Below, piece after piece: positions 528 through 24,643 of a stretch of 24,643 nt of DNA. Source of the stretch: Mycoplasmatota bacterium (GTDB taxonomy: Bacteria; Bacillota_I; Bacilli_A; MAG-NZ); assembly GCA_018394315.1 (NCBI GenBank), contig CP074575.1, positions 2,140,615-2,165,257 on the forward strand, read 5' to 3'. Numbering within the stretch: the first letter of the stretch is position 1; each line of letters starts with the position of its first letter. The notes beneath the pieces are model-generated. The model ran no database searches and was not told the origin of the DNA. It was given only the letters and a program-made list of their open reading frames with translations. A program made the position numbers and the translations under genes.

Positions 528-810
528 TAGTATAACTCCTATCAAAAATTTAGCAACATTGGCCTACATAAAAACTTGTACTTCTCAATTTAAGCCTTTA
601 TTACTAGCGATTCATACTCTAATAAGTTATTTCATTCATACTCATTATAATACATTAGCTACTGATTTGTAAGTACTTATCTTCTTTTGCGATAATGATG
701 AATCATAATTTCTATAGCACATACCTTACTACCCATAGTTGAATAATTCGATAAAAATGATCAGATTAGAAAATTTAATAAGCACTGTTATAAAAAAACA
801 GAGTCATATT

Positions 811-867
811 TGAACTGCACCCCTTTCTTACTTGGTTAGTTTCCTCCAAGTTCTGGGGTGCAGTTCA
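811..867. mobile_element. 57-bp MITE / internally deleted IS3-family (IS150-like) remnant inserted in a terminator hairpin
   Basis: Perfect 13-bp terminal IR TGAACTGCACCCC / GGGGTGCAGTTCA with TG...CA ends, flanked by TATT direct repeats (807-810, 868-871). Removing it restores a CAGAGT/ACTCTG hairpin with A/T tails. Confidence 0.65.
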
Positions 868-886
868 TATTACTCTGCTTTTCTTA

Positions 887-926
887 TGACGACGGCAACG
901 GGTTTTGAACCAATACCGATGGTGTT
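887..926 (-). repeat. Degenerate tRNA-Trp 3' fragment (att-like site, truncated copy)
   Basis: Minus strand AACACCATCGGTATTGGTTCAAAACCCGTTGCCGTCGTCA is colinear with a tRNA-Trp 3' half (T-loop GGTTCRA, acceptor strand) and with the copy at 21925. Confidence 0.7.
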
Positions 927-1015
927 TTTCACTGTTTAATTTTGACCACTTTATATGGTTCACTATAGCTGTTAAAAATAACAATTATTGGATTACAGTA
1001 TTATTTCAAAGAAAT

Positions 1016-6703: not shown

Positions 6704-7543
6704 CTATAGCCTTCCAACTAATGAAGTCAGGTGGTTCACAGTACTTATAATTTCTTTTTTTAAAAATTCGTTTGTATTTATTGAATTCTCAACCTCTACA
6801 TCTCGCTTTAGTAAACCAAAATTTCCCCAACTTGGTGAGAATGGTTTATAAGGCTTGTGTCCTGGTTTATGATCCCAGTGCGGTATATATGGTTTATATG
6901 GCTTATGGTCCGGTTTGTGGTCATCCCAGTGTGGTATTGGCACATGATGTGGTTTATGATTGTGTTCGTGATCATCCCAATAAGGAATATATGGTGTATA
7001 TGGTTCATGATCGTGTGTGTGATCATTCCAATCAGGAATATAAGGTGTATATGGTTCTGGTGCTGGGACGGGAGTTGGTTCAGGTATTGGAATTACATCA
7101 GGCTTTGGTGGTTCTGGTTTTGGTTTTGGTTTCCATTCTCCATCATCATCTTTAAAGTACTCAGTACAATCCCATTCCTCCATACCTTCAAAAATCTTAT
7201 TTAGAGAAATATCAATTCCTTTTGAATAATTACTTCCAAGATGCATACTTGCACTAAAAACTCTATCTATCACACATTGACAAGTTTCATATCTCAACTT
7301 ATCTATTCCCCAGTTGATAATTGGTTTAACCTTTAACAATGTTTCATTTTTAACTTCAGGATTCATCTCATTCCATCCTTCAGTCTTTAGATATTTATTG
7401 CCACTAAATTTGTACCAACTAAAATATCCAGCTACTGCAGCTCTTTTAATTAATTCCTCACACGGTAATACACCAAGATAATCATATATTGATATCGGAT
7501 GATAAAACATAAACTGCTTATCTTTACGGTATTGAGTTTTCAA
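6704..7543 (-). CDS. Hypothetical protein with Pro/His/Tyr/Trp-rich repeats, possible spore coat protein
   Basis: TTG start with AGGAAGGAG RBS; repeats like PYTPYIPxWDDHxHxH; upstream CATATTAT box. Confidence 0.65.
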   Translation of the reverse strand: MKTQYRKDKQFMFYHPISIYDYLGVLPCEELIKRAAVAGYFSWYKFSGNKYLKTEGWNEMNPEVKNETLLKVKPIINWGIDKLRYETCQCVIDRVFSASMHLGSNYSKGIDISLNKIFEGMEEWDCTEYFKDDDGEWKPKPKPEPPKPDVIPIPEPTPVPAPEPYTPYIPDWNDHTHDHEPYTPYIPYWDDHEHNHKPHHVPIPHWDDHKPDHKPYKPYIPHWDHKPGHKPYKPFSPSWGNFGLLKRDVEVENSINTNEFLKKEIISTVNHLTSLVGRL

Positions 7544-10083: not shown

Positions 10084-10142
10084 ATTAACAAAGTTTAAGA
10101 CTGACTTAGTTGGTTTTCTTTAATATACTAAATTTCTATCAA

Positions 10143-10171
10143 CGAAGTGTTGGAAATCAAAACAGCGCATT
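10143..10171 (-). repeat. att-like repeat copy
   Basis: + strand GTGTTG GAAATCAAAA CAGCGC ATT starting at 10147. Confidence 0.65.
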
Positions 10172-10175
10172 TTAT

Positions 10176-10204
10176 AAAAAACAAGCCTCAATTATGAGGC
10201 TTTT
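10176..10204. terminator. Bidirectional intrinsic terminator
   Basis: AAGCCTCA-ATTA-TGAGGCTT with A/T tails between convergent MFS and DUF4234 genes. Confidence 0.8.
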
Positions 10205-10309
10205 AACATAGAACTAAAGGACAATTGTAAAAAAACGCACAAACCATTACCTCAATGCTAGTTTTCAGAACAATTCAGTAAGATTATATAATTACTTTTT
10301 TTAAAAACA

Positions 10310-10621
10310 TCATAGCTTATTAGCTTGATTTTGCATTAAGAAAGGATTTAACCACGATAATGCGAAGAAACAGAAAATCAAATAGAGTATAGAATGGTCA
10401 TCAGCACCTTGCTTTGCAAGTCGTTGCCCCGCCACATATTGCCAATAAATGCTATAGATACCAAATGTGAAAATCAACATAAGAAAGTGAGCAAACCCTC
10501 CGAATCCCTCTCCAGTTTGTTCCTTTAACTCAACTTGAAACTTAATATTCCAGTAAATCAAATAGATTCCAAATGTTACAATTATAAGTAATATCATCAG
10601 TCCAATTGAACGCTTTGTCAT
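10310..10621 (-). CDS. DUF4234-like small membrane protein
   Basis: Duplicated TFGIYxIYW motif; strong RBS GGGGGAG. Confidence 0.8.
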   Translation of the reverse strand: MTKRSIGLMILLIIVTFGIYLIYWNIKFQVELKEQTGEGFGGFAHFLMLIFTFGIYSIYWQYVAGQRLAKQGADDHSILYLIFCFFALSWLNPFLMQNQANKL

Positions 10622-10638
10622 AACACTCCCCCTTTTCT

Positions 10639-10667
10639 ATTATAACTAGGTATATCATAGTATGCAA
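10639..10667 (-). promoter_or_regulatory. SigA-type promoter of the DUF4234 gene
   Basis: TTGCAT-N17-TATAAT on the minus strand, between the att-like repeat and the RBS. Confidence 0.7.
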
Positions 10668-10691
10668 CGATGATTAAAATAATACATACTA

Positions 10692-10719
10692 GGAGTGCTG
10701 GATACCGAAACAACGCATA
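10692..10719 (-). repeat. att-like repeat copy
   Basis: + strand GTGCTG GATACCGAAA CAACGC ATA starting at 10695. Confidence 0.75.
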
Positions 10720-11446
10720 ATCACATTTTGAGATACAACTTTCTAAATCATAGACACCCATTAGATATCTAATTTATTATTAATCTCCCCTAAAAAACCT
10801 TATAGATGGAATGAAATATATTCCAGTAAAACACACCTAAAAAATATTATCATAAGAGTAAATCTAGTAAATTTAATCATCATTGCGCATTTTCTTAATC
10901 ACACTTCATAGTACCTACCCCATAATCACACAGAATCAAATAAAAATTACTGGTTTTAGATAATCCCCAGTTACAAAATCCAGCTACTGAGTTAGCATCT
11001 TTAGGTTTTCCTAAGCGGTTTCGATGGTGGATCTGGGATGCAACCTTAAACAATCACATAAAAAATTTCTTTAACTTGTACAATTTGAAAATATATTGTT
11101 TAAAGGCATTGTTGATGCTCTCTTTCTTAACAGAATTATTTAGTTTACTACAGAAGAACTGTTTTTTTGTATGTACAAGACTTAATCGTATATAATTTAT
11201 TTCTTGTAAATATTCATTTAATTTATTATGATTATGAAGATATTTTCTTAAGTATGATTTGTAGTGCCTATATTTTTTCTTTTTGCGGTTCGAAAGTTAG
11301 AGGAATATTTACTATTTTATCATCTGATTTTAGTAGATCGGCCGAAAATAAAAAGTTCACTACATATTGTAATCAACTTTTTTATATCTAGTTAAGTAAT
11401 TCTTAACTACAAACTGAAACTATTTTGTTAGAAGGGTAGAAATTAC

Positions 11447-11632
11447 TTAACATTTAGTGGAAGCAAGACCTATAATAACCAACAGTATAAATAATACTAA
11501 TACTATTGTGTAGCTATTATCAGAACCACAGCAACCATAACCGTATCCGCCACCGTAACCATATCCGCCACCGTAACCGTATCCGCCACTGGAACTGTAT
11601 CCGCCACCGTAACCATATCCACCGTAACTCAT
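11447..11632 (-). CDS. YjcZ family sporulation protein
   Basis: GYGYGG repeats followed by IVLVLFILLVIIG; AAAGGGG RBS; upstream CATACTCT box. Confidence 0.88.
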   Translation of the reverse strand: MSYGGYGYGGGYSSSGGYGYGGGYGYGGGYGYGCCGSDNSYTIVLVLFILLVIIGLASTKC

Positions 11633-11943
11633 ATAATTCCCCCTTTCTAATACTAGAGTATGTTCATATGAAACTTTGAGATATTACAAACAACCAATTT
11701 CTATATCTAAAGCTTCTTAAGCATAGCATTTACCCCCCCTTAAAAATTACTTTACCGATTATAATATTCGTTAGTCCATTTTTATTATAAATAATCTTTG
11801 GGACACCAATAAGAAAACCAATAATAATATGATTTTATTTTTATTTATGATACATATCATAAAGAAATCACGTTTAATATGTGATAATGATTTTACACTT
11901 ACAGTATGTTATAATAATTTAATTGAATTAAGTAGGTGAATAA

Positions 11944-12716: not shown

Positions 12717-12734
12717 GTTGTTTTAATAGTGAAT

Positions 12735-12759
12735 CGATGGTGGAGACCGAAAGGACACT
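12735..12759 (-). repeat. att-like repeat copy
   Basis: + strand ATGGTG GAGACCGAAA GGACAC starting at 12737. Confidence 0.7.
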
Positions 12760-12825
12760 CTCTATGATTATCGAACTGTAGATTTTCTTCTTATCTTTTT
12801 ATACCAATAATCTCTTACTAAGCAC

Positions 12826-13659
12826 TTAAGCCGGAATCTTGAATTCACATGCAACACCAACTTGGCACAATCCGCAGCTTGATGAAGCCACTTCATAATG
12901 TTTCTCGGTATATGGCTTGATTACATTTCGTTGATACGCTCTACACTTAAGTTTGTCGTGCCCTTGCTCGGATATGGCTCCTACTGGACATCTTCTTATA
13001 CAATCATTACATGTACCATCGGAATAAAAAAGGCAGTATTCATGGTGAGAAACATATTTTCTTACACTGTAAGTTAATTCTACTTCCGAAATAATAGAAC
13101 CGCACCGATGAGCTTTTCCAACACTTGTTATTAATCCATCACATAGTCCAAAAGTACCTAATCCACATGCAAATGCAGTATGTCTCTCTGACCATGAGGA
13201 AGCATATCCATATTTATCAGATTCATAATAACTCCAATTTTCACTTAAGGATGGGCACATTGTTTTTATGTTTCTTCTATTCAATTCGTTAACTAAGAAT
13301 TCCATTAACATATCAATAAACTTTTGACCATATATTCTATTATTTGACCATAATCTACTAGCATAGTGCTCTTCATTTAGATTTGCAATCCTAGTCTCTA
13401 TTCTTTGGGGAAAGATAAAACTAACAACACTTAGTTTATCAGTATTAGAATCTCCGAATTCATGCCTAAAAGCTTCTTTTGGATTCCAGTAAAATCCCCC
13501 TATATCGTTCTTGAAAAAATCAAAAATTTTATCACTTCCACTGGAAAATCCAATTAATGGCATTTCATACGGTGTTTCTGATTCAGCATAGTTAATATAA
13601 AATTCTTCTATTAGTTCATTCAGTAAATTAGTATACTCCCTTTTTACATCACCAGGCAT
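12826..13659 (-). CDS. Epoxyqueuosine reductase (QueG)-like 4Fe-4S protein
   Basis: WSERH..FACGLGTFG, CxxCxxRCPVGAI and CGLCQVGVAC motifs. Start moved to ATG 13659 (GGGGGAG RBS). Substrate not assignable. Confidence 0.8.
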   Translation of the reverse strand: MPGDVKREYTNLLNELIEEFYINYAESETPYEMPLIGFSSGSDKIFDFFKNDIGGFYWNPKEAFRHEFGDSNTDKLSVVSFIFPQRIETRIANLNEEHYASRLWSNNRIYGQKFIDMLMEFLVNELNRRNIKTMCPSLSENWSYYESDKYGYASSWSERHTAFACGLGTFGLCDGLITSVGKAHRCGSIISEVELTYSVRKYVSHHEYCLFYSDGTCNDCIRRCPVGAISEQGHDKLKCRAYQRNVIKPYTEKHYEVASSSCGLCQVGVACEFKIPA

Positions 13660-13812
13660 TTGGCTCCCCCCATTCATGCTAGAAACTATTTTCAAGCAAT
13701 ACAAACTATCCAACTGTTTCGGATGTTTACATAATATAATTCAACTTAGATTAATACTCTACACTTACAATAAAAAAAGAATGATTTTACTCTAAAAATG
13801 TATGTTTATGCA

Positions 13813-13842
13813 ACCGGTGTTAGAAACAGAAAACGACACATT
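13813..13842 (-). repeat. att-like repeat copy
   Basis: + strand GTGTTA GAAACAGAAAA CGACAC ATT starting at 13817. Confidence 0.65.
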
Positions 13843-13902: not shown

Positions 13903-14460
13903 TTATTCAATAATTTTGTACTCAATGTCTTCCCATTCTTCTCTCAAAATACCATACTCATATTCATCCCACCAGATTGGGTCGCCATTATTATTTCTTT
14001 TAATAAAATAACTTTTTTTTAAGTTACCTTCTCGTCTCATTAAAATCCTTTCTAAAAGTTTCCATGACTTAATATTATCAGGATTACATCTTGCGGAAAC
14101 ACGATGAATTTGAAGGTTATCAAAACCATACTGTATAATAGCTTTGCATGCTTCTGTAGCGTAGCCTTTACCATAATATTTAGGATTAAATATATACCCT
14201 AAATTCCAACTCAAAAATTTTTTTGGCATTGCTTGATTGAAGTATACATGACCAATCATTTTACCTTTAGTTTTAAGTTCAACAGCCCAAAAGGCATTAC
14301 TTTGTGATAAAGACATAGCCGCTTTCTTACAACCTTCATCAGTTGAATCCCAATCCGACTCAAACTTAAGTACTTCTTCTTCAATTATATATTCTTGTAA
14401 ATCTTTCCAATCTTCTTCTTTGAAGTTTCTCACTAATAATCTTTCGGTTTCTATGATCAA
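13903..14460 (-). CDS. GNAT family N-acetyltransferase (RimJ/RimL type)
   Basis: IETERL, GYIFNPKYYGKGYATEA, NIKSWKLLER; TTG start with AAGGGGAG RBS. Confidence 0.92.
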   Translation of the reverse strand: MIIETERLLVRNFKEEDWKDLQEYIIEEEVLKFESDWDSTDEGCKKAAMSLSQSNAFWAVELKTKGKMIGHVYFNQAMPKKFLSWNLGYIFNPKYYGKGYATEACKAIIQYGFDNLQIHRVSARCNPDNIKSWKLLERILMRREGNLKKSYFIKRNNNGDPIWWDEYEYGILREEWEDIEYKIIE

Positions 14461-14520
14461 TTGAATCTCCCCTTTTTATTTTATCTATATCAATTGTATA
14501 CTTATTTTGCACTTATATCA

Positions 14521-14551
14521 AACTGTGTTGGAGTCTGAAATAACACATATT
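14521..14551 (-). repeat. att-like repeat copy
   Basis: + strand GTGTTG GAGTCTGAAA TAACAC ATA starting at 14525. Confidence 0.75.
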
Positions 14552-14988: not shown

Positions 14989-17487
14989 TTATGACTGATT
15001 TTTAATCTCATCTATCTCGCCATTTACTTCTTCAATTTCCTTCTCATAGTGGCGATTTAATTCATTTATCTTGTCATTGTATTCTTCAATCTCTTCATCT
15101 GATAATTCACTTCTTTTTGCTTCTAACTCTTCTTCTAGTTCTGCTAGTTTTATATCATATTCCAATTCTAGATTCACTAACTCTTCCTCTAACTTTTGGA
15201 TTTCCTCTTGTTTTTCAGCTTCATCTTCTTGTGCTTCTTCATCTAGGTCTGAAATAAAATCAAGGATATCTTTTTTTAGATCTTCATAATCTTCTTCCAG
15301 ATCATCAATTTGATCTTTTACTTCGTCGATCGCATCTTCATGTAATGATGTATCTTCTAACATTATTTCTAGATCAGCTATATTTTCATTAAACTGAGCA
15401 GTAATCTCATCCAATAATAAATTAGCCCCTTCAACTGAAATCAATTGTTCAATTTCATGTTCGTACTGTTCAGTTATTGCTTCAAATTGATTTTTTCTTG
15501 CTCCTAGCTCCGATTCACTTTCCTCTTCTTCTAAGTCTGAAATAAAATCAAGAATTTCTTCTTCTAGGTCTTCAAAATCGTCTTGTAGATCTTCAATTTG
15601 ATCTTTGATTTCGTCGATCGCATCTTCATTTGATGGTGTACCTTCTAACATTACTTCTAGATTAGCTATATTTTCATTAAACTTGCCAGTAATCTCATCC
15701 AATAACAAATTAGCTCCTTCAACTGAAATCAATTGTTCAATTTCATATTTATACTGTTCAGTTATTGCTTCAAATTGATTTTTTCTTGCTTCTAGTTCTG
15801 CTTTACTTTCTTCTTCATCTATTTCTGAAATCAATTCAGTGATGTCTTCTTCTAAATCCTTATAATCATCTTGTAGGTCTTCAATTTGATCATTGATTTC
15901 GTCGATCGTATCTTCATTTAATGAAGTATCTTCTAACATTATTTCTAGACTAGCTATATTATCATTAAACTCAACAGTAATTTCTTCTAACAATGAATTA
16001 GCTTCCTCAACTGAAGTCAATTGTTTTATTTCATACTTATAACGGTTTTTTATCGCTTCTAGCTGAATTTTATTAGCTTTTAATTCTGCATCTTCAACAT
16101 CTTCTATAGCATCGTTCATGGTAGAAGCAATCTTTTCTTCAGCTTCAGTTTTCAACTCATTAATTTTTTGATCAAACTCAACTGTTAGTTCAGCAATTTC
16201 TGCCTCAAGCTCTGCAATTTCTTCTTCAGTCATATTTTCTCTATTTGTTAAAAGTTCAGTGTTAAGTTCTTCTAGTTCTTGTTCATATTCATCAGTTAAT
16301 TTTGATATATCTTCGTACAACTCTTCAGCGACATCTTCAGCTTCATCTTCTGCTTCTCTTACCTTTTCTTTTGCTTCTTCGATTTTTTCCTTAGCTTCTT
16401 TGGCTTTTTCTTTTGCTTTTTCTTTTGCTTCTTCGTCCTCTTCAATTGATTCATAATAATCTTCTAACATGTCCTCAAGATCATCAACATCCATTGCTTG
16501 TAATTCTTCTACACTTAACAACCCTAAACCACTTAATGTTTCAATATACTTTTGTCTATCTGTTTCTTCAACTGCAAGTTCCGCAGTTTCCTTAACTTGA
16601 TTTTCCTTAATTTCGTAATATTCCTTTAGAACATCATGTAAATCTTTTGTCTCAGTAACAGCAATTTCTTCGATTGTTAGTAGTTCCTGTTCTAAGATTT
16701 CATTAACATACTTTTCTCTTTTTTTCAATTGTCCCGGGGTATCATCATTATCTTCAGATACGATTTCTTGAATTACAACCCCGTAAGATTCTTCTAGTAA
16801 ATCTTTGATATCATTAACCTTCATATCAGCAAGTTCATCTACATCATCTAATGAATAATCACCAGTAATAAGTAATGCTTCAATCAGTGTAGCTTTTGCT
16901 TGTGAAATCACAGATGATTCAGTATCTATAATTTCTTTATATTTATTTACTACAGTTTCAAATTGTTTTCCTAATTTCTCTGCTTCTTCATCTACAGTTG
17001 AAGTAATCTCTTGCTCTAACTGGTTATTTAACTCATCATCTTCTGATTGGACACTGAATAATATCGTGTCATCCTCAATTAAGAAATCCTGATCTTCAGC
17101 AACTTGAATAATATTCGCCACCAAATCATCTAAATTTGTTAATGTAACATCAACATCTAATAATAATGTCTCGGCATCAGCATTCAGTGCTTCAACACTA
17201 ATTACTTCATTATTTTCATCTAAGTTAATTAAGACACCTGGGTTGATATCAAGTGTTACTACAGAATTAAGTGCTCTCACCGGTACTATAGTACCATCAC
17301 CCTGGTTCAATCCAAAACCAAACACCAATGCAATCATAAGCATTGCAAATGCGCCTGTACGCTTCCAATTCCACAGAAGTCTAAAACTTTTGTTGTTATT
17401 AAAGTTTAAATGACTCTTCACATCTTTAGCTTCTAATTGTGAAGAAATGTTTATATTGTTATGTATTTCTTTTTTTAGCCTTTTCAT
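14989..17487 (-). CDS. Putative anti-sigma factor (RsgI-like domain) with long acidic coiled-coil tail
   Basis: Single TM helix, then VTLDINPGV.I.LD....V..VEALNADA (RsgI-like); 2 bp downstream of the ECF sigma gene. Confidence 0.75.
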   Translation of the reverse strand: MKRLKKEIHNNINISSQLEAKDVKSHLNFNNNKSFRLLWNWKRTGAFAMLMIALVFGFGLNQGDGTIVPVRALNSVVTLDINPGVLINLDENNEVISVEALNADAETLLLDVDVTLTNLDDLVANIIQVAEDQDFLIEDDTILFSVQSEDDELNNQLEQEITSTVDEEAEKLGKQFETVVNKYKEIIDTESSVISQAKATLIEALLITGDYSLDDVDELADMKVNDIKDLLEESYGVVIQEIVSEDNDDTPGQLKKREKYVNEILEQELLTIEEIAVTETKDLHDVLKEYYEIKENQVKETAELAVEETDRQKYIETLSGLGLLSVEELQAMDVDDLEDMLEDYYESIEEDEEAKEKAKEKAKEAKEKIEEAKEKVREAEDEAEDVAEELYEDISKLTDEYEQELEELNTELLTNRENMTEEEIAELEAEIAELTVEFDQKINELKTEAEEKIASTMNDAIEDVEDAELKANKIQLEAIKNRYKYEIKQLTSVEEANSLLEEITVEFNDNIASLEIMLEDTSLNEDTIDEINDQIEDLQDDYKDLEEDITELISEIDEEESKAELEARKNQFEAITEQYKYEIEQLISVEGANLLLDEITGKFNENIANLEVMLEGTPSNEDAIDEIKDQIEDLQDDFEDLEEEILDFISDLEEEESESELGARKNQFEAITEQYEHEIEQLISVEGANLLLDEITAQFNENIADLEIMLEDTSLHEDAIDEVKDQIDDLEEDYEDLKKDILDFISDLDEEAQEDEAEKQEEIQKLEEELVNLELEYDIKLAELEEELEAKRSELSDEEIEEYNDKINELNRHYEKEIEEVNGEIDEIKNQS
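15230..16090 (-). repeat. Three tandem 288-bp (96-aa) intragenic repeats
   Basis: TCAATTTGATC...TTCGTCGATCG block recurs near 15296, 15584 and 15872 (period 288). Boundaries approximate. Confidence 0.85.
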
Positions 17488-17489
17488 AT

Positions 17490-18017
17490 CTATACCTCCA
17501 ATTTTTCTTTTAATTTTTTCATTGCTTCGTTATACTTCCAACTAATTGTACCAATAGGCTTGTCCAAACCTTTTGATATCTGTTTATGAGTATAATTTCC
17601 AAGAACATGCATCAGTACAATTTGAAACTCATCATTATTCAGTACACTTTTCATGTCTTTTAATAATAGTAACTCTCTTTCGCTGGAACAATCACTGGAC
17701 ATAAAATCAAATCTATTCGATTCAACATAACTCATTTTGCTTTCTTTTCTTATGAAATTAATGGTTTTGTTTCTTGCGATGGTAAGCATCCATGATAGGA
17801 AATTATTACTATTACAAGAATCTATTTTTTCATATATTGTGATATAAGTATCTTGAAGTAAATCATCTGCAGCTGCTCGATTCTTCACCATACTATAAAT
17901 AAAATAGAAAAGATAGTCCCTTGTTAAGTAAAATAATTCATCAAATGCTCTTTCACTTTTTTTCTTTAACTTATACTTAATGATTCCTAACTGTCTTTTG
18001 CTCATTCTTTGGGCCAT
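17490..18017 (-). CDS. ECF (sigma-70 group 4) RNA polymerase sigma factor
   Basis: Region 2 ADDLLQDTY...FLSWMLTIARN; region 4 THKQIS..LDKPIGTISW. Confidence 0.92.
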   Translation of the reverse strand: MAQRMSKRQLGIIKYKLKKKSERAFDELFYLTRDYLFYFIYSMVKNRAAADDLLQDTYITIYEKIDSCNSNNFLSWMLTIARNKTINFIRKESKMSYVESNRFDFMSSDCSSERELLLLKDMKSVLNNDEFQIVLMHVLGNYTHKQISKGLDKPIGTISWKYNEAMKKLKEKLEV

Positions 18018-19088: not shown

Positions 19089-19113
19089 GTACATCGGACA
19101 ACTTAATAGAAAT

Positions 19114-19145
19114 AAAAAAACAGAGTCCAAAAATGGCTCTATTTT
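19114..19145. terminator. Bidirectional terminator
   Basis: AAAAAAACAGAGTCCA-AAAA-TGGCTCTATTTT between the GNAT gene and the car relic. Confidence 0.65.
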
Positions 19146-19158
19146 AATATTTTATCAC

Positions 19159-19319
19159 TTATTCCACTATATTAAAAACTTTTGTATTTTTAATTTCAAT
19201 AATTGCATTCATAACGTCGGTCAAGGCTTGTACAGTATTTTTCCAACACTTTCCTTCAAATATCCAAATGCATTTCCTTCAAATATTACTCCATTTTCTA
19301 ATACTAAATGTGCTTTCAT
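19159..19319 (-). pseudogene. carA: carA (pyrAA) 5' fragment joined out of frame to a probable carB 3' end
   Basis: ATG 19319: MKAHLVLENGVIFEGNAFGYLKESVG matches the CarA N-terminus, stop at 19221. Another frame reads TVQALTDVMNAIIEIKNTKVFNIVE* (stop 19159), CarB C-terminus-like. Confidence 0.8.
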
Positions 19320-19460
19320 CTTCATCTCACTTTCTAGTCTCACAGTACCAATTTAAAGTTTAGAATTTACCTAATACTCAAAAGTTTTTCCATCAATAAA
19401 ATATCACTATGCTCTTTTCGTCATAAATTAAAAATTTCTATGTTTTAAGGTTACTATCAT

Positions 19461-19492
19461 CCCCTTTTTAGCCTCTCTGGACTGAAAAAAAT
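19461..19492 (-). promoter_or_regulatory. PyrR binding loop
   Basis: Minus strand TTTTTTCAGTCCAGAGAGGCTAAAAAGGGG contains the canonical AGUCCAGAGAGGCU. Confidence 0.85.
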
Positions 19493-19507
19493 ATCTCGCT
19501 TTTTCCG

Positions 19508-19543
19508 AAAAAAAAGCCCTCCTCAAAAGAACTGAGAAAGGCT
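19508..19543 (-). terminator. Attenuator terminator of the pyr leader
   Basis: AGCCTTTCTCA-GTTCTTT-TGAGGAGGGCT followed by a T-run, downstream of the first PyrR loop. Confidence 0.75.
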
Positions 19544-19607
19544 GAATAAACGAATTTTTATGTGTTATTTATGTAATTGTATTCTATAAACATAAATATC
19601 ACAAGAC

Positions 19608-19635
19608 CTTCCTAGTCTCTCGTACTAGATTAAAG
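19608..19635 (-). promoter_or_regulatory. PyrR binding loop (leader-proximal)
   Basis: Minus strand CTTTAATCTAGTACGAGAGACTAGGAAG fits CUUUAA..AGUCCNGNGAGGCU..AAG; TTAACA-N17-TATCAT promoter just upstream (19650-19678). Confidence 0.8.
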
Positions 19636-19973
19636 ATACATATCGAACTATGATATATCATTATATATATATTGTTAACAGAACTTTAAAATAGAATAAA
19701 AAAGGACCGTCAGAATTTTGTTTAGATAATTTTCCTGATTACTCTCATTCCAAGAACCATCGATTGGAATTTCACGTGAATTTTCATTAATGTGTTTAAA
19801 TCTAAGGAGCCATCTATTAAACACACTTCAAAAAAAACATAATTTTAGCCATGATTATATTGTTTGATTATTGCTTGGTTTTTCACCCTCTATATGAAGG
19901 AAATCCTATTATTGTGATGAGAAAAATTGTAAAATAATGTATAATGTAAATAGACTTACACTAGGAGGATAAT

Positions 19974-21170: not shown

Positions 21171-21255
21171 ATGTAAATCCTCCTTCTCCTTTAGTTCATT
21201 CTAAGTATATCATCAACTAATTATAAATAGAATAGGTCATCTTATCGTTTATATA

Positions 21256-21287
21256 CTATCGGTTTTGGAGTACGAGAATTCACATAT
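21256..21287 (-). repeat. att-like repeat copy
   Basis: + strand CGGTTTTGGAG TACGAGA ATTCACAT; minus strand CTCCAAAACCG is the tRNA-Trp anticodon loop and 3' stem. Confidence 0.6.
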
Positions 21288-21310
21288 TGGCATAAATAGC
21301 AAAAATATAA

Positions 21311-21718
21311 CTATGCTGCTATAGAAACTTTTTCTTTCCACATTCTGTATTCCTCTAAATCATTTTTAACTGTTTTATAAACGTATGTCAAAATAGCACT
21401 ATCATCGAGACGCCCTATAACTGGGATAGTATCCGGAATAATGTCAAATGGGCTTAATGCATATATCAATGAAGCTACTATAAGTACAACTTTGATCACT
21501 GGTATTTCGCAATAGTCTCCTTTTGAATAATCCTTAACAAGCGAGATAAACGACTTTATAGTTTCCATAAGTTCTTTGAATGCATCCTTATTAGATACCA
21601 TTTTGTCAACTGCTTTCAATAATGTACCTAGTTCATATTCATTGTTCAGCAATTTTTTTGTTTTTTCTTTTAATTAATCATTCTTAATAAACTTTTTAAC
21701 GCTAACATTTTGGCTCGT
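21311..21718 (-). pseudogene. YkvA/DUF1232 family gene with damaged 5' end
   Basis: YALSPFDIIPDTIPVIGRLDD motif. AGGAGG RBS points to ACG at 21718 with in-frame TAA at 21676; the TTG start at 21652 lacks an RBS. Confidence 0.75.
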
Positions 21719-21796
21719 CTTGTTCCTCCTAGTTTTCAATGTCTGTACATATTATAGCATGCCACTATTTGCAACTCAGCTAGGTAAAAAGACAGT

Positions 21797-21828
21797 ATGT
21801 CGTCGTTGGAGACCGAAACACTGATATT
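21797..21828 (-). repeat. att-like repeat copy
   Basis: + strand TCGTTG GAGACCGAAA CACTGA TATT starting at 21803. Confidence 0.75.
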
Positions 21829-21924
21829 TTATATATCGACTAAAAATTTTCTCCAATACTATTACTAATTGCATTTATAATTTCGATTTTTGATAAATCC
21901 GACAAAGGCTCTTTTATAATTATA

Positions 21925-21982
21925 TGGCAGTGGCAACAGAATTTAAACCCTTGGCGACGTGTCGGAGACTGAAACAACTATT
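21925..21982 (-). repeat. Full-length att-like copy: foreign arm plus degenerate tRNA-Trp 3' half ending CCA
   Basis: Minus strand AATAGTTGTTT-CAGTCTCCGACACGTCGCCAAGGGTTTAAATTCTGTTGCCACTGCCA; no D-arm or 5' acceptor strand. Confidence 0.8.
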
Positions 21983-22353
21983 GTTTGGTATTACAATCTT
22001 CTAAAATTACGAATATTTTCCACTTTTTCTTCATAAATAATCCAGTATGGTAATAACGATACATCCTTATTTATGTCACTATAGCCAGATATATGCAATC
22101 CTGTAAATTCATCATTTATATATTTTATTTGAAATAGCTGTATTTAATAGGGTTCTAGACGAATTTCAGTTTAAGAAACATGGCTCTTTGAGTTTCAAGA
22201 GCATTAAAGAACTCTTAGATAGAACAACACCTCATTATCTTCCACAAAGCAATCGCATGGCTTTTTTCCATTGCAAAATATCAGTATGTTTATATAATAG
22301 TGCATGCACTATTCGACACTCTCAAATCCATCTAAAAAAAATTCCGAAGAATG

Positions 22354-22438
22354 TGTAAATTATACTTGACATCGTGTAAAGTTTTGTATACTATAGGGAT
22401 GTAAGCTATACTTTACATATCGTAAACTAAACATGACA
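22354..22438 (+). promoter_or_regulatory. SigA promoter with 3-4 TGTAA-N8-TTACA-like operators
   Basis: TTGACA(22366)-N17-TACTAT; operator-like sites at 22354, 22400, 22421 and a weak one at 22375. Confidence 0.7.
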
Positions 22439-22446
22439 CGGAGGAA

Positions 22447-22911
22447 ATGATTATGTCATATCAAGAAAAAAGAAATTTGTTTAACATAGTTGTATCTAGT
22501 ATTATTACAGTTATATATTTTATTATTATTAATACTAAATTCCAAAACGGTGCTTTTGATACGTCCAACATGTTACGTTTTTGGGCTGTTGTAATTCTAA
22601 TATTTATCCCAGTTTCTGTTATCTCAAGAATTATCGCACTGATTTTATTTCGTATCTATGGTGCGATTTCAGATGAAGTTCGTGGAGAAAAAGAAGATCG
22701 TGATGTGATAGATGAAAGAGATAAATTAATTGAATTGAAAAGTAACAAAGTAGCTCAAATTATATTTATACTTGGATTTATCGGAGCATTATTTACATTA
22801 CTATTTAATGCGAGTGTTTCGGTATTCTTTATCCTTATGTTAGCTAGTGGGTTTGTTGGAGAATTAGCTTCTAATATTATGCAAATTGTATATTACAGAA
22901 GAGGTTTTTAA
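22447..22911 (+). CDS. Four-TM membrane protein (DUF2178-like, DERD motif)
   Basis: DERDKLIELKS motif, YYRRG C-terminus; stop/start overlap with the XRE gene. Confidence 0.75.
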   Translation: MIMSYQEKRNLFNIVVSSIITVIYFIIINTKFQNGAFDTSNMLRFWAVVILIFIPVSVISRIIALILFRIYGAISDEVRGEKEDRDVIDERDKLIELKSNKVAQIIFILGFIGALFTLLFNASVSVFFILMLASGFVGELASNIMQIVYYRRGF

Positions 22912-23123
22912 TGGCCAAATCAAATATTCAAAATCATGTTAGAACATTACGTTTTATGAATAATGAAATGACACAAGCAGACTTAGCAAAAAAAATAGGG
23001 GTATCAAGACAAACAATTGTTGCAATAGAAAAAGGGCAATACTCACCCAGTTTAGAATTAGCGTTTAAAATTTCTGAGGTATTTGATAAAAAAATTGAGG
23101 AGGTATTTTATGTAGAAAATTAG
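22911..23123 (+). CDS. XRE/Cro-CI family HTH regulator
   Basis: MTQADLAKKIGVSRQTIVAIEKGQYSPSLELAFKI. Confidence 0.95.
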   Translation: MAKSNIQNHVRTLRFMNNEMTQADLAKKIGVSRQTIVAIEKGQYSPSLELAFKISEVFDKKIEEVFYVEN

Positions 23124-23323
23124 AAAAGAAGTAATTATCATATAACTATCATTTATTACCGCAATGTTTACTAGTTTTCAGGTTTGATGGAGAATATAGC
23201 AGTAATATAGATTTACAGATAAAATTCTTTGAGTGATATTTTGGTTATTAGTAATCATGACATACCACTCTTAAGGCAAGGTTGTGTATGTTATAACAAA
23301 TAAAGTGAAAGGAGGAATTTCAA

Positions 23324-24040
23324 TTGAAAACTTATAGAATGAATGCAGTGATGGCTGGTGTGCTTTACTTCCTAGGGACAGCATTTGGTGTTGCAAGTAC
23401 TGTCGTAGGGGGGAAGGTGATTTCTTCAATCGTTCAAACCAAACCACTTTCAGGTATAGTTTTACTGGATCTGGTTGCTATTGATTCGTCCCGTCTTCTC
23501 TGGGGTTCATTTTTCATCCTCTTGATGGGGATTTCACTGGTGGCGATGACGGTATTCCTATACCCAATCTTCAAAAAAGATAGTGAAGAACTCGCGATGG
23601 GCATGTTGCTTTTCCGTGGGGCAATGGAGGGAGCCTGGTATTTTATGACGACGATTAGTATTTTAGTATTATTCGCTCTAGGTGAGGAATATGTTGCCAC
23701 AGGGGCTAATTCGACAGCTTTGCAATCTATGGGCAATGTCGTGTATAAGTTCCAAGACCTTCTGGGACCAGTAGGAACTATTTTGTTTCTTATAGGGGCT
23801 ACGTGTTTATATATCTCTTTCTACCGTACAAGGTTAATCCCCCGCTGGTTGTCCGTTTGGGGACTAATCGGCGTGGTTCCATATATGGCTTATGCTCTAT
23901 TACATTTCTTCGGTATGGATAACGGCGTTGGATTTTACCTACAAATGTTGCTAGCGATACAAGAAATTGTGTTGGCTCTTTGGCTGATTATCAAAGGATT
24001 TGATCGTGCAGCCATTGGCAAGCTTGTAACTGATAATTAA
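23324..24040 (+). CDS. DUF4386-like membrane protein
   Basis: AGVLYFLG, LYPIFKK, LIPRWLSVWGLIG, E..LALWLIIKGF; TTG start with AAAGGAGG RBS. Confidence 0.85.
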   Translation: MKTYRMNAVMAGVLYFLGTAFGVASTVVGGKVISSIVQTKPLSGIVLLDLVAIDSSRLLWGSFFILLMGISLVAMTVFLYPIFKKDSEELAMGMLLFRGAMEGAWYFMTTISILVLFALGEEYVATGANSTALQSMGNVVYKFQDLLGPVGTILFLIGATCLYISFYRTRLIPRWLSVWGLIGVVPYMAYALLHFFGMDNGVGFYLQMLLAIQEIVLALWLIIKGFDRAAIGKLVTDN

Positions 24041-24065
24041 AGTGTATAATCAAGTTCGGTGTCAC

Positions 24066-24103
24066 AAGGTGCTATCGCTAAATTTAGGTGATAGCGCCTT
24101 TTT
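24066..24103 (+). terminator. Intrinsic terminator
   Basis: AAGGTGCTATCGCTAA / TTAGGTGATAGCGCCTT plus T-run. Confidence 0.85.
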
Positions 24104-24643
24104 CTTTATATTTAGGATTTAAGTGTTTTGAATAGGAGCTATCTCTTAAGTTCAACGTACTGGTTGTTTATATTGTATTTTACAGATAATCGATTATTAG
24201 TCGTTATTATTTCTTTTTCGAAAGGGGATATCTTCTCACAAAGTTTTCCGTACCATCTTTATAGTCAAAAGTGTCTTGTTCCCCCCACATCCAAAAGTCT
24301 GCTGCAACATAATTATTCTCAACAATAAACTGAAACAAAATTAAGTTCTCGCTTAACATCCGATTCAATTACATCACTGTCTTAACACCTAAATTAACGT
24401 GAGGATTCGTGATCACTCGCACCTTCAATTATAGAATTTCCAATTTAGTCACTAAAAGTAATAGTCCCTTCTTCTTAAAACAAAAATCTCTTACCTAATA
24501 GCTCTCTCCATTAAAAACCATTTCATATAATTCTGAATAATTGCTAACATCCTGATAATAATATTCATCCCAAATGACTACCAGATTTCTTGTATTAAGT
24601 ATTTTCACCAGCAATGAAATATATGAAATCACCGCCACCAATA

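Follow-up and report, generated by a model that had tools for sequence, protein, structure and literature searches.

A tRNA-Trp hybrid junction in a Mycoplasmatota chromosome and its kinship with arrays of short anticodon-loop sites

The window analyzed here, a stretch of 24,643 nucleotides, is the last 24.6 kb of the single 2.17-Mb contig (C1) of a Mycoplasmatota genome (the source genome, G000), and the tRNA-Trp gene lies near the start of the same contig. A preliminary description, made from the letters alone, quoted a sequence that we located at window positions 21982-21925 of the minus strand; it saw there a foreign arm joined to the 3' half of tRNA-Trp, and the origin of the short repeats found in the same window. 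What is this hybrid, which process left it there, and are the short repeats mere relics of that process or also the boundaries of units that move?

The hybrid copy and the tRNA-Trp locus

The source genome has a single tRNA-Trp(CCA) gene, on the complementary strand at C1:7950-8024. Aligned globally with this gene, as the preliminary description had proposed, window positions 21971-21925 (minus strand) are identical to it at 39 of 48 positions, from nucleotide 28 to the CCA, with 8 mismatches and 1 deleted base. The alignment score of 62 compares with 29.5 for the next best of the 33 host tRNA genes and with a mean of 19.5 and a maximum of 41 for 2,000 dinucleotide shuffles of the fragment, which bears out a hybrid that ends in a tRNA-Trp 3' half. 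No intact tRNA is called by ARAGORN in the window, as had been anticipated. Rfam has nothing at the gathering level there, the mir-5595 matches being an inverted-repeat insert at 794-882.

Some details of the earlier account changed. It was right in taking the two sequences as colinear through the CCA, but the likeness does not end there and runs on for about 29 bases into the terminator, to about position 21896. The copy is the best long one in the window, although a second, more decayed one lies at 934-887 (34/48). Its arm does belong to the family but is degenerate here, and the proposed ATGYGTTGTTT, taken by itself, is no commoner in the window than expected (22 matches at 2 mismatches, with 21.8 expected); arm plus stem is enriched (5 matches, with 0.5 expected). 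Apart from this, a C27-T43 mismatch closes the anticodon stem of the host tRNA-Trp and also that of G004, a genome of the same family. The long junctions and their surroundings in the window are the following.

21984-24643, no strand assigned: cargo of the unit upstream of the copy, with DUF4386, HTH and a 154-aa ORF (Pfam)
21972-21983, minus strand: degenerate element-type left arm replacing the D-arm (aligned to the intact attR arm at C1:733 and the family consensus)
21925-21971, minus strand: decayed tRNA-Trp 3' half, nucleotide 28 to CCA (39/48 identities; score 62 against 29.5)
21967-21961, minus strand: anticodon loop of this copy, with 1 change; its 5' stem has 1 change and its 3' stem a 1-base deletion
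21896-21924, minus strand: tRNA-Trp terminator remnant (alignment to the tRNA locus and attR)
19110-19143, minus strand: isolated tRNA-Trp terminator copy (34 bases, 97% identical to the tRNA-Trp terminator of G004), probably a relic of a further long junction
794-934, minus strand: most distal long junction, a tRNA-Trp 3' half (934-887, 34/48) and a terminator with a small inverted-repeat insert

The counterpart of the hybrid lies at the other end of the contig. A 7.26-kb element sits directly behind the tRNA-Trp gene, and its far end (C1:733-686) is a perfect 48/48 copy plus terminator, preceded by the non-tRNA arm, so that a direct repeat of 48/48 bases and terminator flanks PF00589 and PF02407 genes. 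The element encodes a 301-aa tyrosine integrase (C1:6978-7883, pointing at the tRNA), Viral_Rep and HTH proteins, and cargo, with no conjugation family in the 10 ORFs scanned; shortly before its end it has one gene and one short site (C1:1523). At the intact attR (C1:733) the arms form the dyad CGT-N5-CGGT, 7-base loop, ACCG-N5-ACG. This perfect twin, closing an integrase-bearing element, agrees with the attR/attP-type architecture that had been read into the window copy. A second integrase gene at C1:1-600, without the N-terminal third, is 46% identical to the 301-aa integrase. Hybrids of the same kind, arm plus 3' half, are present in G001, G002 and G004, and another long tRNA-Trp copy of the source genome is found at C1:1433377 (42/48). 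At its tRNA-Trp gene, G004 has integrase fragments only, among them a second-type remnant 79% identical to that of the source genome, and other integrase families occupy this place in relatives (314 aa in G005, 410 aa in G108).

The G004 genes downstream of tRNA-Trp map to the end of the source contig and the upstream ones to its start, so the two contig ends are probably adjacent, though a gap may lie between them; a terminal overlap of the contig ends was sought and not found. With the ends joined, the cargo at 21984-24643 would run on over the joint as far as the integrase remnant at C1:1-600, and the hybrid copy would be the middle one of three long junctions behind tRNA-Trp. The likely order is tRNA, first element, 48/48 junction (C1:733-686), decayed second element, the 39/48 copy, 21 kb of integrase-less units, and the 34/48 junction (window 934-887). 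Identity that falls with distance from the tRNA would fit insertion at the tRNA end, as far as three points can suggest. In the units from 21971 to 934, Pfam finds no integrase family. This arrangement supports viewing the 21971 copy as an internal, damaged junction in a tandem stack rather than as a working attP. The loop sequences of recombining sites must match (the overlap homology rule), and with its altered anticodon loop this copy is probably no longer a recombination substrate.

The stack and related loci contain several other features. The small insert in the distal terminator (window 794-882) has 13-base inverted ends, which we take to resemble IS3-like ends, and a second copy at C1:970091-970156. 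A sigma factor/RsgI-like pair (window 14989-18017, minus strand) is found directly upstream of tRNA-Trp in G005 (L038:6123-8952). A PyrR-like leader at 19240-19640 (minus strand; Rfam E 0.09, below the cut-off) lies inside the stack, and the apparent cut-off 5' end of a carbamoyl-phosphate synthase small-subunit gene after it is presumably captured chromosomal DNA. The 279-aa ORF at 6704-7543 (minus strand) has Pro/His/Lys-rich repeats and no Pfam or NCBIfam match. Element cargo at L001:1682-3456 (minus strand) has multi-ubiquitin-like, DUF6791+ThiF and DUF6527 genes in a row, resembling, we assume, bacterial ubiquitin-like defence clusters.

Short Trp sites, their units, and their place in Phe arrays

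The 15-base anticodon stem-loop of each distinct host tRNA was searched genome-wide, with locally shuffled DNA as the control. At up to 2 mismatches, the Trp stem-loop has 14 copies outside tRNA genes and the Phe stem-loop 18, with none in shuffled DNA; the Gln stem-loop has 3 copies at up to 1 mismatch, and those of the other tRNAs are near background. The three Gln copies (C1:639677, 1765694 and 2085751) could form a third site family; one is a long junction 1.6 kb beyond tRNA-Gln, and the others are short and far from it. A short Trp site consists of the left arm (consensus ATATGTGTCGTTTC over 76 sites), the stem-loop, and a right side that tracks the tRNA for about 8 bases before fading. 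A tRNA-Trp-like terminator above the 99th percentile of shuffles is present in 20 of 109 short sites, several of which are copies of one unit. With these terminators and the kept stem-loop and first bases beyond it, the short sites look like long sites minus the T-arm and acceptor stem, and the tRNA-Trp origin first suggested for them is supported.

In the window, six short Trp sites at 14.8 to 28.9 bits are picked up by a position-specific scoring matrix (PSSM) trained without the source genome, for which 4.3 Mb of shuffled DNA gave 1 match of at least 14 bits. A seventh, with an insertion that the ungapped PSSM misses, comes from nhmmer (background 0.03 per shuffled window at 8 bits or more). 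These sites and the one-gene units between them are as follows.

21795-21829, minus strand: short Trp site between an empty 156-bp unit, which ends here, and the DUF1232 unit, which starts here (PSSM 21.4 bits; nhmmer 16.5 bits)
21274-21814, minus strand: 541-bp one-gene unit, DUF1232 ORF at 21311-21652 (Pfam; G004 homologue)
21254-21288, minus strand: short Trp site (PSSM 17.4 bits), its atypical left arm common to the end of the G004 homologue
14517-14551, minus strand: short Trp site before a GNAT gene at 13903-14460 (PSSM 28.9 bits; Pfam)
13809-13842, minus strand: short Trp site with insertion, before an Fe-S protein gene at 12826-13713 (nhmmer 9.4 bits)
12729-12763, minus strand: short Trp site (PSSM 23.3 bits)
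10687-10721, minus strand: short Trp site that opens the DUF4234 unit (PSSM 25.3 bits)
10159-10706, minus strand: 548-bp one-gene unit, DUF4234 ORF at 10310-10621 (G004 homologue)
10139-10173, minus strand: short Trp site (PSSM 14.8 bits; nhmmer 13.1 bits)

The DUF1232 unit is 78% identical over 524 bp to a G004 unit that starts at the Trp site of a different array; the neighbors differ on both sides, and the two units have in common a variant right half-site at the start and the atypical left arm at the end. The DUF4234 gene is 84% identical to a G004 gene between two Trp sites, with different non-coding ends. Similarly, the 65 bases downstream of the site at 12729-12763 recur behind a Trp site at C1:672038 (79% match), and the 67 bases upstream of the site at 10687-10721 recur before a G004 Trp site. 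Two intervals of the window, of 6.7 and 9.2 kb, are long and multigenic, with no further sites found inside, and the sites of the window are degenerate. A YjcZ-like spore gene unit at window 11345-11699 has a 90% duplicate in another Trp-bounded cluster (C1:1431033-1431375) and relatives in G004 and G001.

Among 8 genomes of the host's family, G004 has 61 Trp and 90 Phe matches at up to 1 mismatch (reversed controls for both motifs, 0), the source genome has 10 and 16, G001 (55% complete) has 5 and 6, and the other five have 0 to 3, with reversed controls of 0 to 1. In the 401 class genomes, large Trp expansions were seen only in the host's family. Several others have 5 to 6 matches. Of five other class genomes with raised Trp counts that were inspected, two had arrays, and G333, G291 and G073 were dropped, their matches being scattered. 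The exact arm-plus-loop pattern occurs in 21 stretches in 3 genome records, which come from the same GTDB release as the compared genomes and do not count as independent of them. Its single metagenome match lies in DNA of 69% GC and was judged to be chance, and it has 0 matches in viral sequences.

For G004, the clusters and some flanks were analyzed, about 460 kb of 2.45 Mb, and the unit counts are limited to those. Among 60 Trp-Trp units of 250 to 1,500 bp, 53 have one ORF, 4 have two and 3 have none, and the longest ORF is on the same strand as the sites in 54 and on the opposite one in 3. Almost all Trp sites (113 of 117) fall outside ORFs of at least 100 aa. At the start of 18 of 109 unit heads lies a terminator-like hairpin, compared with 3.3 in shuffles and 10 of 116 for upstream controls, a feature that speaks against read-through at those heads. 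A common terminator hairpin was also seen at short-site heads in two families (G000:C1:1523; G158:C1:95852 and 99845).

Several units are found end to end in different arrays, 88 to 98% identical. Among 116 sites, the Trp site pairs with a homologous flank have it downstream only in 27 cases, upstream only in 5 and on both sides in 2, i.e., 32 of 34 share one side only; the 27 and 5 pairs belong to 11 and 3 unit families, respectively, most of them in a single genome, and should not be counted as 32 separate events. Pairs with a common upstream flank are alike up to motif position 8, apart from one mismatch, and differ from position 9 onward, and pairs with a common downstream flank are at background identity through position 2. 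The switch thus falls between positions 2 and 9, which is the anticodon loop, and the proposed crossover in the anticodon arm gains from neighbors that change over within these 7 bases. Phe sites behave alike (16, 22 and 0 pairs). These data support the view that the short repeats, besides being relics, are boundaries of units recurring in other arrays. As a separate case, a 2.9-kb block (G000:C1:668473-672038 and G004:C1:127819-130928) that includes a transposase-like ORF is Phe/Trp-bounded in one genome and Trp/Trp-bounded in the other; its 96.5% identity between two genera marks it, on sequence grounds, as a recent exchange between them.

In G004, Trp and Phe sites occur together in arrays, and blocks of Trp sites lie inside arrays of tRNA-Phe sites, in the map pattern Phe, pad, Trp, Trp ... 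Phe. After thirteen of the Phe sites, a conserved connector leads to a Trp site 55 to 57 bases further on. The left arm of these connector Trp sites is nearer to the tRNA's arm than to the element's in 12 of 13 (one tie), with a mean of 5.9/10 against the tRNA arm and 2.4 for a shuffled arm, whereas the element's arm is nearer in 73 of 75 internal Trp sites; other first or isolated Trp sites have the element arm in 16 of 19. The 13 connectors share a single ancestor. A more specific descent, from the 5' half of tRNA-Trp, is unsupported, as Lys, Thr and Phe score equally over the 10-base arm. G001 has a 38-base connector with an element-type arm. The source genome is without such a connector, and its Trp sites sit in islands behind Ser(TGA), Ser(GCT) and Arg(TCT) tRNA genes. 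In G158, from another family, a five-site Trp array has a different arm, and its head site, directly after an Arg-type tRNA end, has a tRNA-like one; G249 has the same arm as this array, plus one tRNA-like site. Two other observations concern Phe sites: 14 of them, with about one gene between each and no adjoining integrase, lie at G000:C1:576089-583883, and a Trp-to-Phe spacing of only 22 bases occurs in two genomes (G004:C1:1553022 and L033:1589).

The integrase family and the probable origin of the hybrid

The model of the 301-aa integrase (pLDDT 91) consists of a four-helix core-binding domain and the catalytic domain only and matches residues 75 to 356 of lambda Int and 82 to 397 of Tn1549 Int, their arm-less part; the catalytic motifs are present. 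It is not IntI (TIGR02249, 77 bits with a cut-off of 265; NF011946, 48 with a cut-off of 435) and is neither XerC nor XerD (117 and 95 bits; cut-offs, 335 and 330), and in a tree it falls apart from two proteins that are likely the Xer recombinases of the host. Family members with different tRNA targets are not resolved into groups in this tree. The second integrase (C1:1-600) belongs to the same family (E 6e-85).

A profile built from 26 of 32 homologues matched 14 of 399 scored class genomes at an E value of 1e-60 or better. The 20 loci returned lie at tRNA-Phe (6), tRNA-Arg (4), tRNA-Trp (2, the source genome and a 410-aa outlier), tRNA-Thr (1) and tmRNA (1, another subfamily), and 6 have no tRNA within the 1.5-kb flank examined; the members beside Phe, Arg, Thr and Trp tRNAs come from several families. 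A viral scan with the integrase alignment gave one close relative among 80 loci, with no adjoining tRNA. In G151, tRNA-Phe and the integrase are followed by an array of mixed long and short sites (40 matches genome-wide), and short-site arrays of the same kind with other arms are found in G151, G158 and G249. The Arg stack of G049 has long sites in 8 of 10 non-gene matches and thus looks like plain accretion. At tRNA-Phe, G004 keeps an intact integrase of this family, followed by two short and two long sites, and the source genome has no intact Phe integrase.

On this evidence, the hybrid is probably a decayed joint from the insertion of one mobile unit in front of another at the tRNA-Trp anticodon loop; a small tyrosine integrase is likely to have done this, and to move the single-gene units with short sites as well. 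The integrase would recombine simple double-stranded sites, two arms of roughly 12 bp around the 7-base loop, with each unit bringing a right half-site at its start and a left half-site at its end. Units with the whole tRNA 3' half could enter the tRNA gene, displacing older units outward. With the T-arm and acceptor stem gone, a unit could no longer rebuild the single tRNA-Trp gene and would therefore enter downstream junctions or tRNA-like pads. Such pads would ride in units of sister systems (of the Phe type in G004, and following the end of an Arg-type tRNA in G158) and so carry Trp arrays to distant loci, and whole stacks would move from cell to cell inside an integrase-bearing (Rep) element. 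As G004 has many Trp sites and only integrase fragments at tRNA-Trp, and the source genome has no intact Phe integrase, a visiting enzyme has to be assumed.

A bolder reading, which we put forward tentatively and with more doubt than belief, would make anticodon stem-loops orthogonal cassette sites of arm-less tyrosine integrases, the 7-base loop (Trp, Phe, Arg) serving as the address. Portable tRNA-mimic pads, carried inside cassettes of one channel, would seed arrays of another, visiting mini-elements would capture, reorder and export single genes, and pads and short sites would be under selection, amounting to an integron analogue in integron-less Bacilli.

Sequencing runs added little. One sediment metagenome contains 11% of the window's words, and no RNA runs containing them are listed. 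Reads placed on the window and on C1:1-9500 came from related strains only, at low depth, and showed no window joint on a Trp site and no recombination, circle or excision. In contigs from one run (X1), the match ends at the attR arm, and one contig joins the integrase 3' end to the arm-bearing tRNA half; at 85% likeness, a relative's excised circle and a relative's tandem junction are both conceivable sources, and the case was not counted.

Passive accretion is the main competitor, and we regard it as unlikely. Units would have entered once, as or with full tRNA islands, and decayed, leaving short sites as scars, with distant copies made by homologous recombination, gene conversion or IS activity. 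The continuum from long to short sites, the tRNA terminators in 20 of 109 short sites, the integrase remnants beside long sites in the source genome and G004, and a decay that increases with distance all agree with it, and it has precedents in the route described for ICEs, IMEs and CIMEs (PMC5704250) and, as far as the available text goes, in the tycheposon island model (10.1101/2020.12.28.424599). It fares badly with whole units that are 88 to 98% identical in different arrays next to other neighbors, with the switch in the loop. Nor does it sit well with units that mostly hold one gene in one orientation, with a left arm conserved in 75 internal sites while the right side is lost beyond about 8 bases, or with arrays distant from tRNA-Trp.

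The units might also be mobile through another enzyme: host Xer, the second Trp integrase (C1:1-600, 46% identical) or another tRNA integrase family. Many well-preserved Trp sites in G004 without an intact family integrase at tRNA-Trp speak for this, as do the second-type remnants there in the source genome and G004 (79% identical), the fact that an element of the second type is the one ending at the hybrid, and the different integrases at tRNA-Trp in G005 and G108. We consider it distinctly improbable, given that the second integrase is of the same family (E 6e-85), that the sole intact element bounded by this arm encodes the 301-aa integrase, and that in G151 a family integrase lies directly between tRNA-Phe and a short-site array. 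Dif-type sites have a 6-base spacer, and the sites here have the 7-base tRNA loop instead. There appears to be a negligible probability that the hybrid is unrelated to recombination, whether as a fortuitous likeness, as a tRNA pseudogene arisen by duplication or as an artefact of assembly. It does lie 2.7 kb from a contig end without terminal overlap, and no run covers the strain, but the shuffle and all-tRNA controls already refute chance, the arm found at the perfect attR takes the place of its 5' half, and the same hybrid of arm and 3' half is present in G001, G002 and G004.

Comparison with known systems

Taken alone, the fragment is nothing unusual, a textbook island scar of a known kind. 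Tyrosine integrases are known to recombine within the anticodon loop, with a displaced 3' fragment as the trace (PMC4383910; PMC8371274), and this anticodon-centered crossover is the commonest class in the Islander collection, to judge from its available text (PMC4383910). The islands described there combine an intact tRNA, an integrase, a co-oriented displaced 3' fragment, an anticodon-loop crossover and tandems, which the hybrid and the 7.26-kb element fit exactly. An intact tRNA-Trp has a same-orientation 3' fragment downstream (for the hybrid, presumably across the contig end). The interval holds an integrase, intact at C1:6978-7883 and, in the hybrid's own unit, only as the C-terminal remnant at C1:1-600, and the start of identity at nucleotide 28 together with the neighbor switch points to the loop as the crossover. 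However, Islander tandems of three or more are rare in that account (4 of 3,919 islands; PMC4383910), and the arrays here have tens of sites at many loci. Islander, as described, rejects internal tRNA fragments and intervals shorter than 2 kb or without an integrase, which removes the short sites and most units, and IntegronFinder seeks attC; current island and integron finders would thus miss such arrays.

The 7.26-kb element resembles the IMEs, small elements with a tyrosine integrase and, in two streptococcal cases, a PF02407 Viral_Rep (PMC5704250): it has the integrase, a protein that looks like an RCR-type Rep, and no conjugation family in its 10 ORFs. The same survey describes decayed units stacked with intact elements and CIMEs, integrase-less units with att ends, and the att-bounded window units from 21971 to 934, without integrase and in tandem with an intact element, are alike. 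Units of about 0.6 kb with single genes and eroded right ends, reordered at distant loci and with nested site types, set the present arrays apart from the IMEs and CIMEs described there; neither a TcpA coupling gene nor an oriT came to light in the general scans. Tycheposons of Prochlorococcus share tRNA-specific integrases, scattered partial tRNAs and integrase fragments, and newer elements that displace older ones (10.1101/2020.12.28.424599). In the available text of that report, island-specific integrases partition the pool and gene-sized units between anticodon-only sites are not described, whereas here site types mix via connectors. The literature searched, which most subscription papers lie outside, describes neither arrays built from anticodon-only sites nor the nesting of one site type in another. 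What is new here is the nesting of Trp-site blocks in the tRNA-Phe-site arrays of G004.

The pdif modules are plasmid-borne and use host XerC/D and dif-like sites, whereas the units here are chromosomal, have tRNA-derived sites and are all in direct orientation. Gene-sized modules between simple tyrosine recombinase sites are common to these units and the pdif modules of Acinetobacter plasmids (PMC6449649).

The system is integron-like in its working yet is no integron, having neither IntI nor attC. Like integrons and CALINs as surveyed in PMC4889954, the arrays have co-oriented one-gene units (53 of 60 with one ORF; 54 to 3 in orientation), clusters far from an integrase, and a distinct head site followed by uniform ones (12 of 13 connectors, compared with 73 of 75 internal sites), although 16 of 19 other first or isolated sites are element-armed. 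Unlike integrons, they have short tRNA-derived dyads rather than attC hairpins (0 of 10 strand folds from 5 sites were more stable than shuffles; z, -0.5 to 0.9), an integrase that is not IntI and is carried on a mobile element, and some heads with their own terminator. The family also provides compact integrases whose short natural sites (Trp, Phe and Arg loops) may be orthogonal. The available text of that survey reports no complete integrons in Firmicutes or Tenericutes (PMC4889954), and in such a setting these arrays show a route from ordinary tRNA-island accretion to the integron-like shuffling of single genes.
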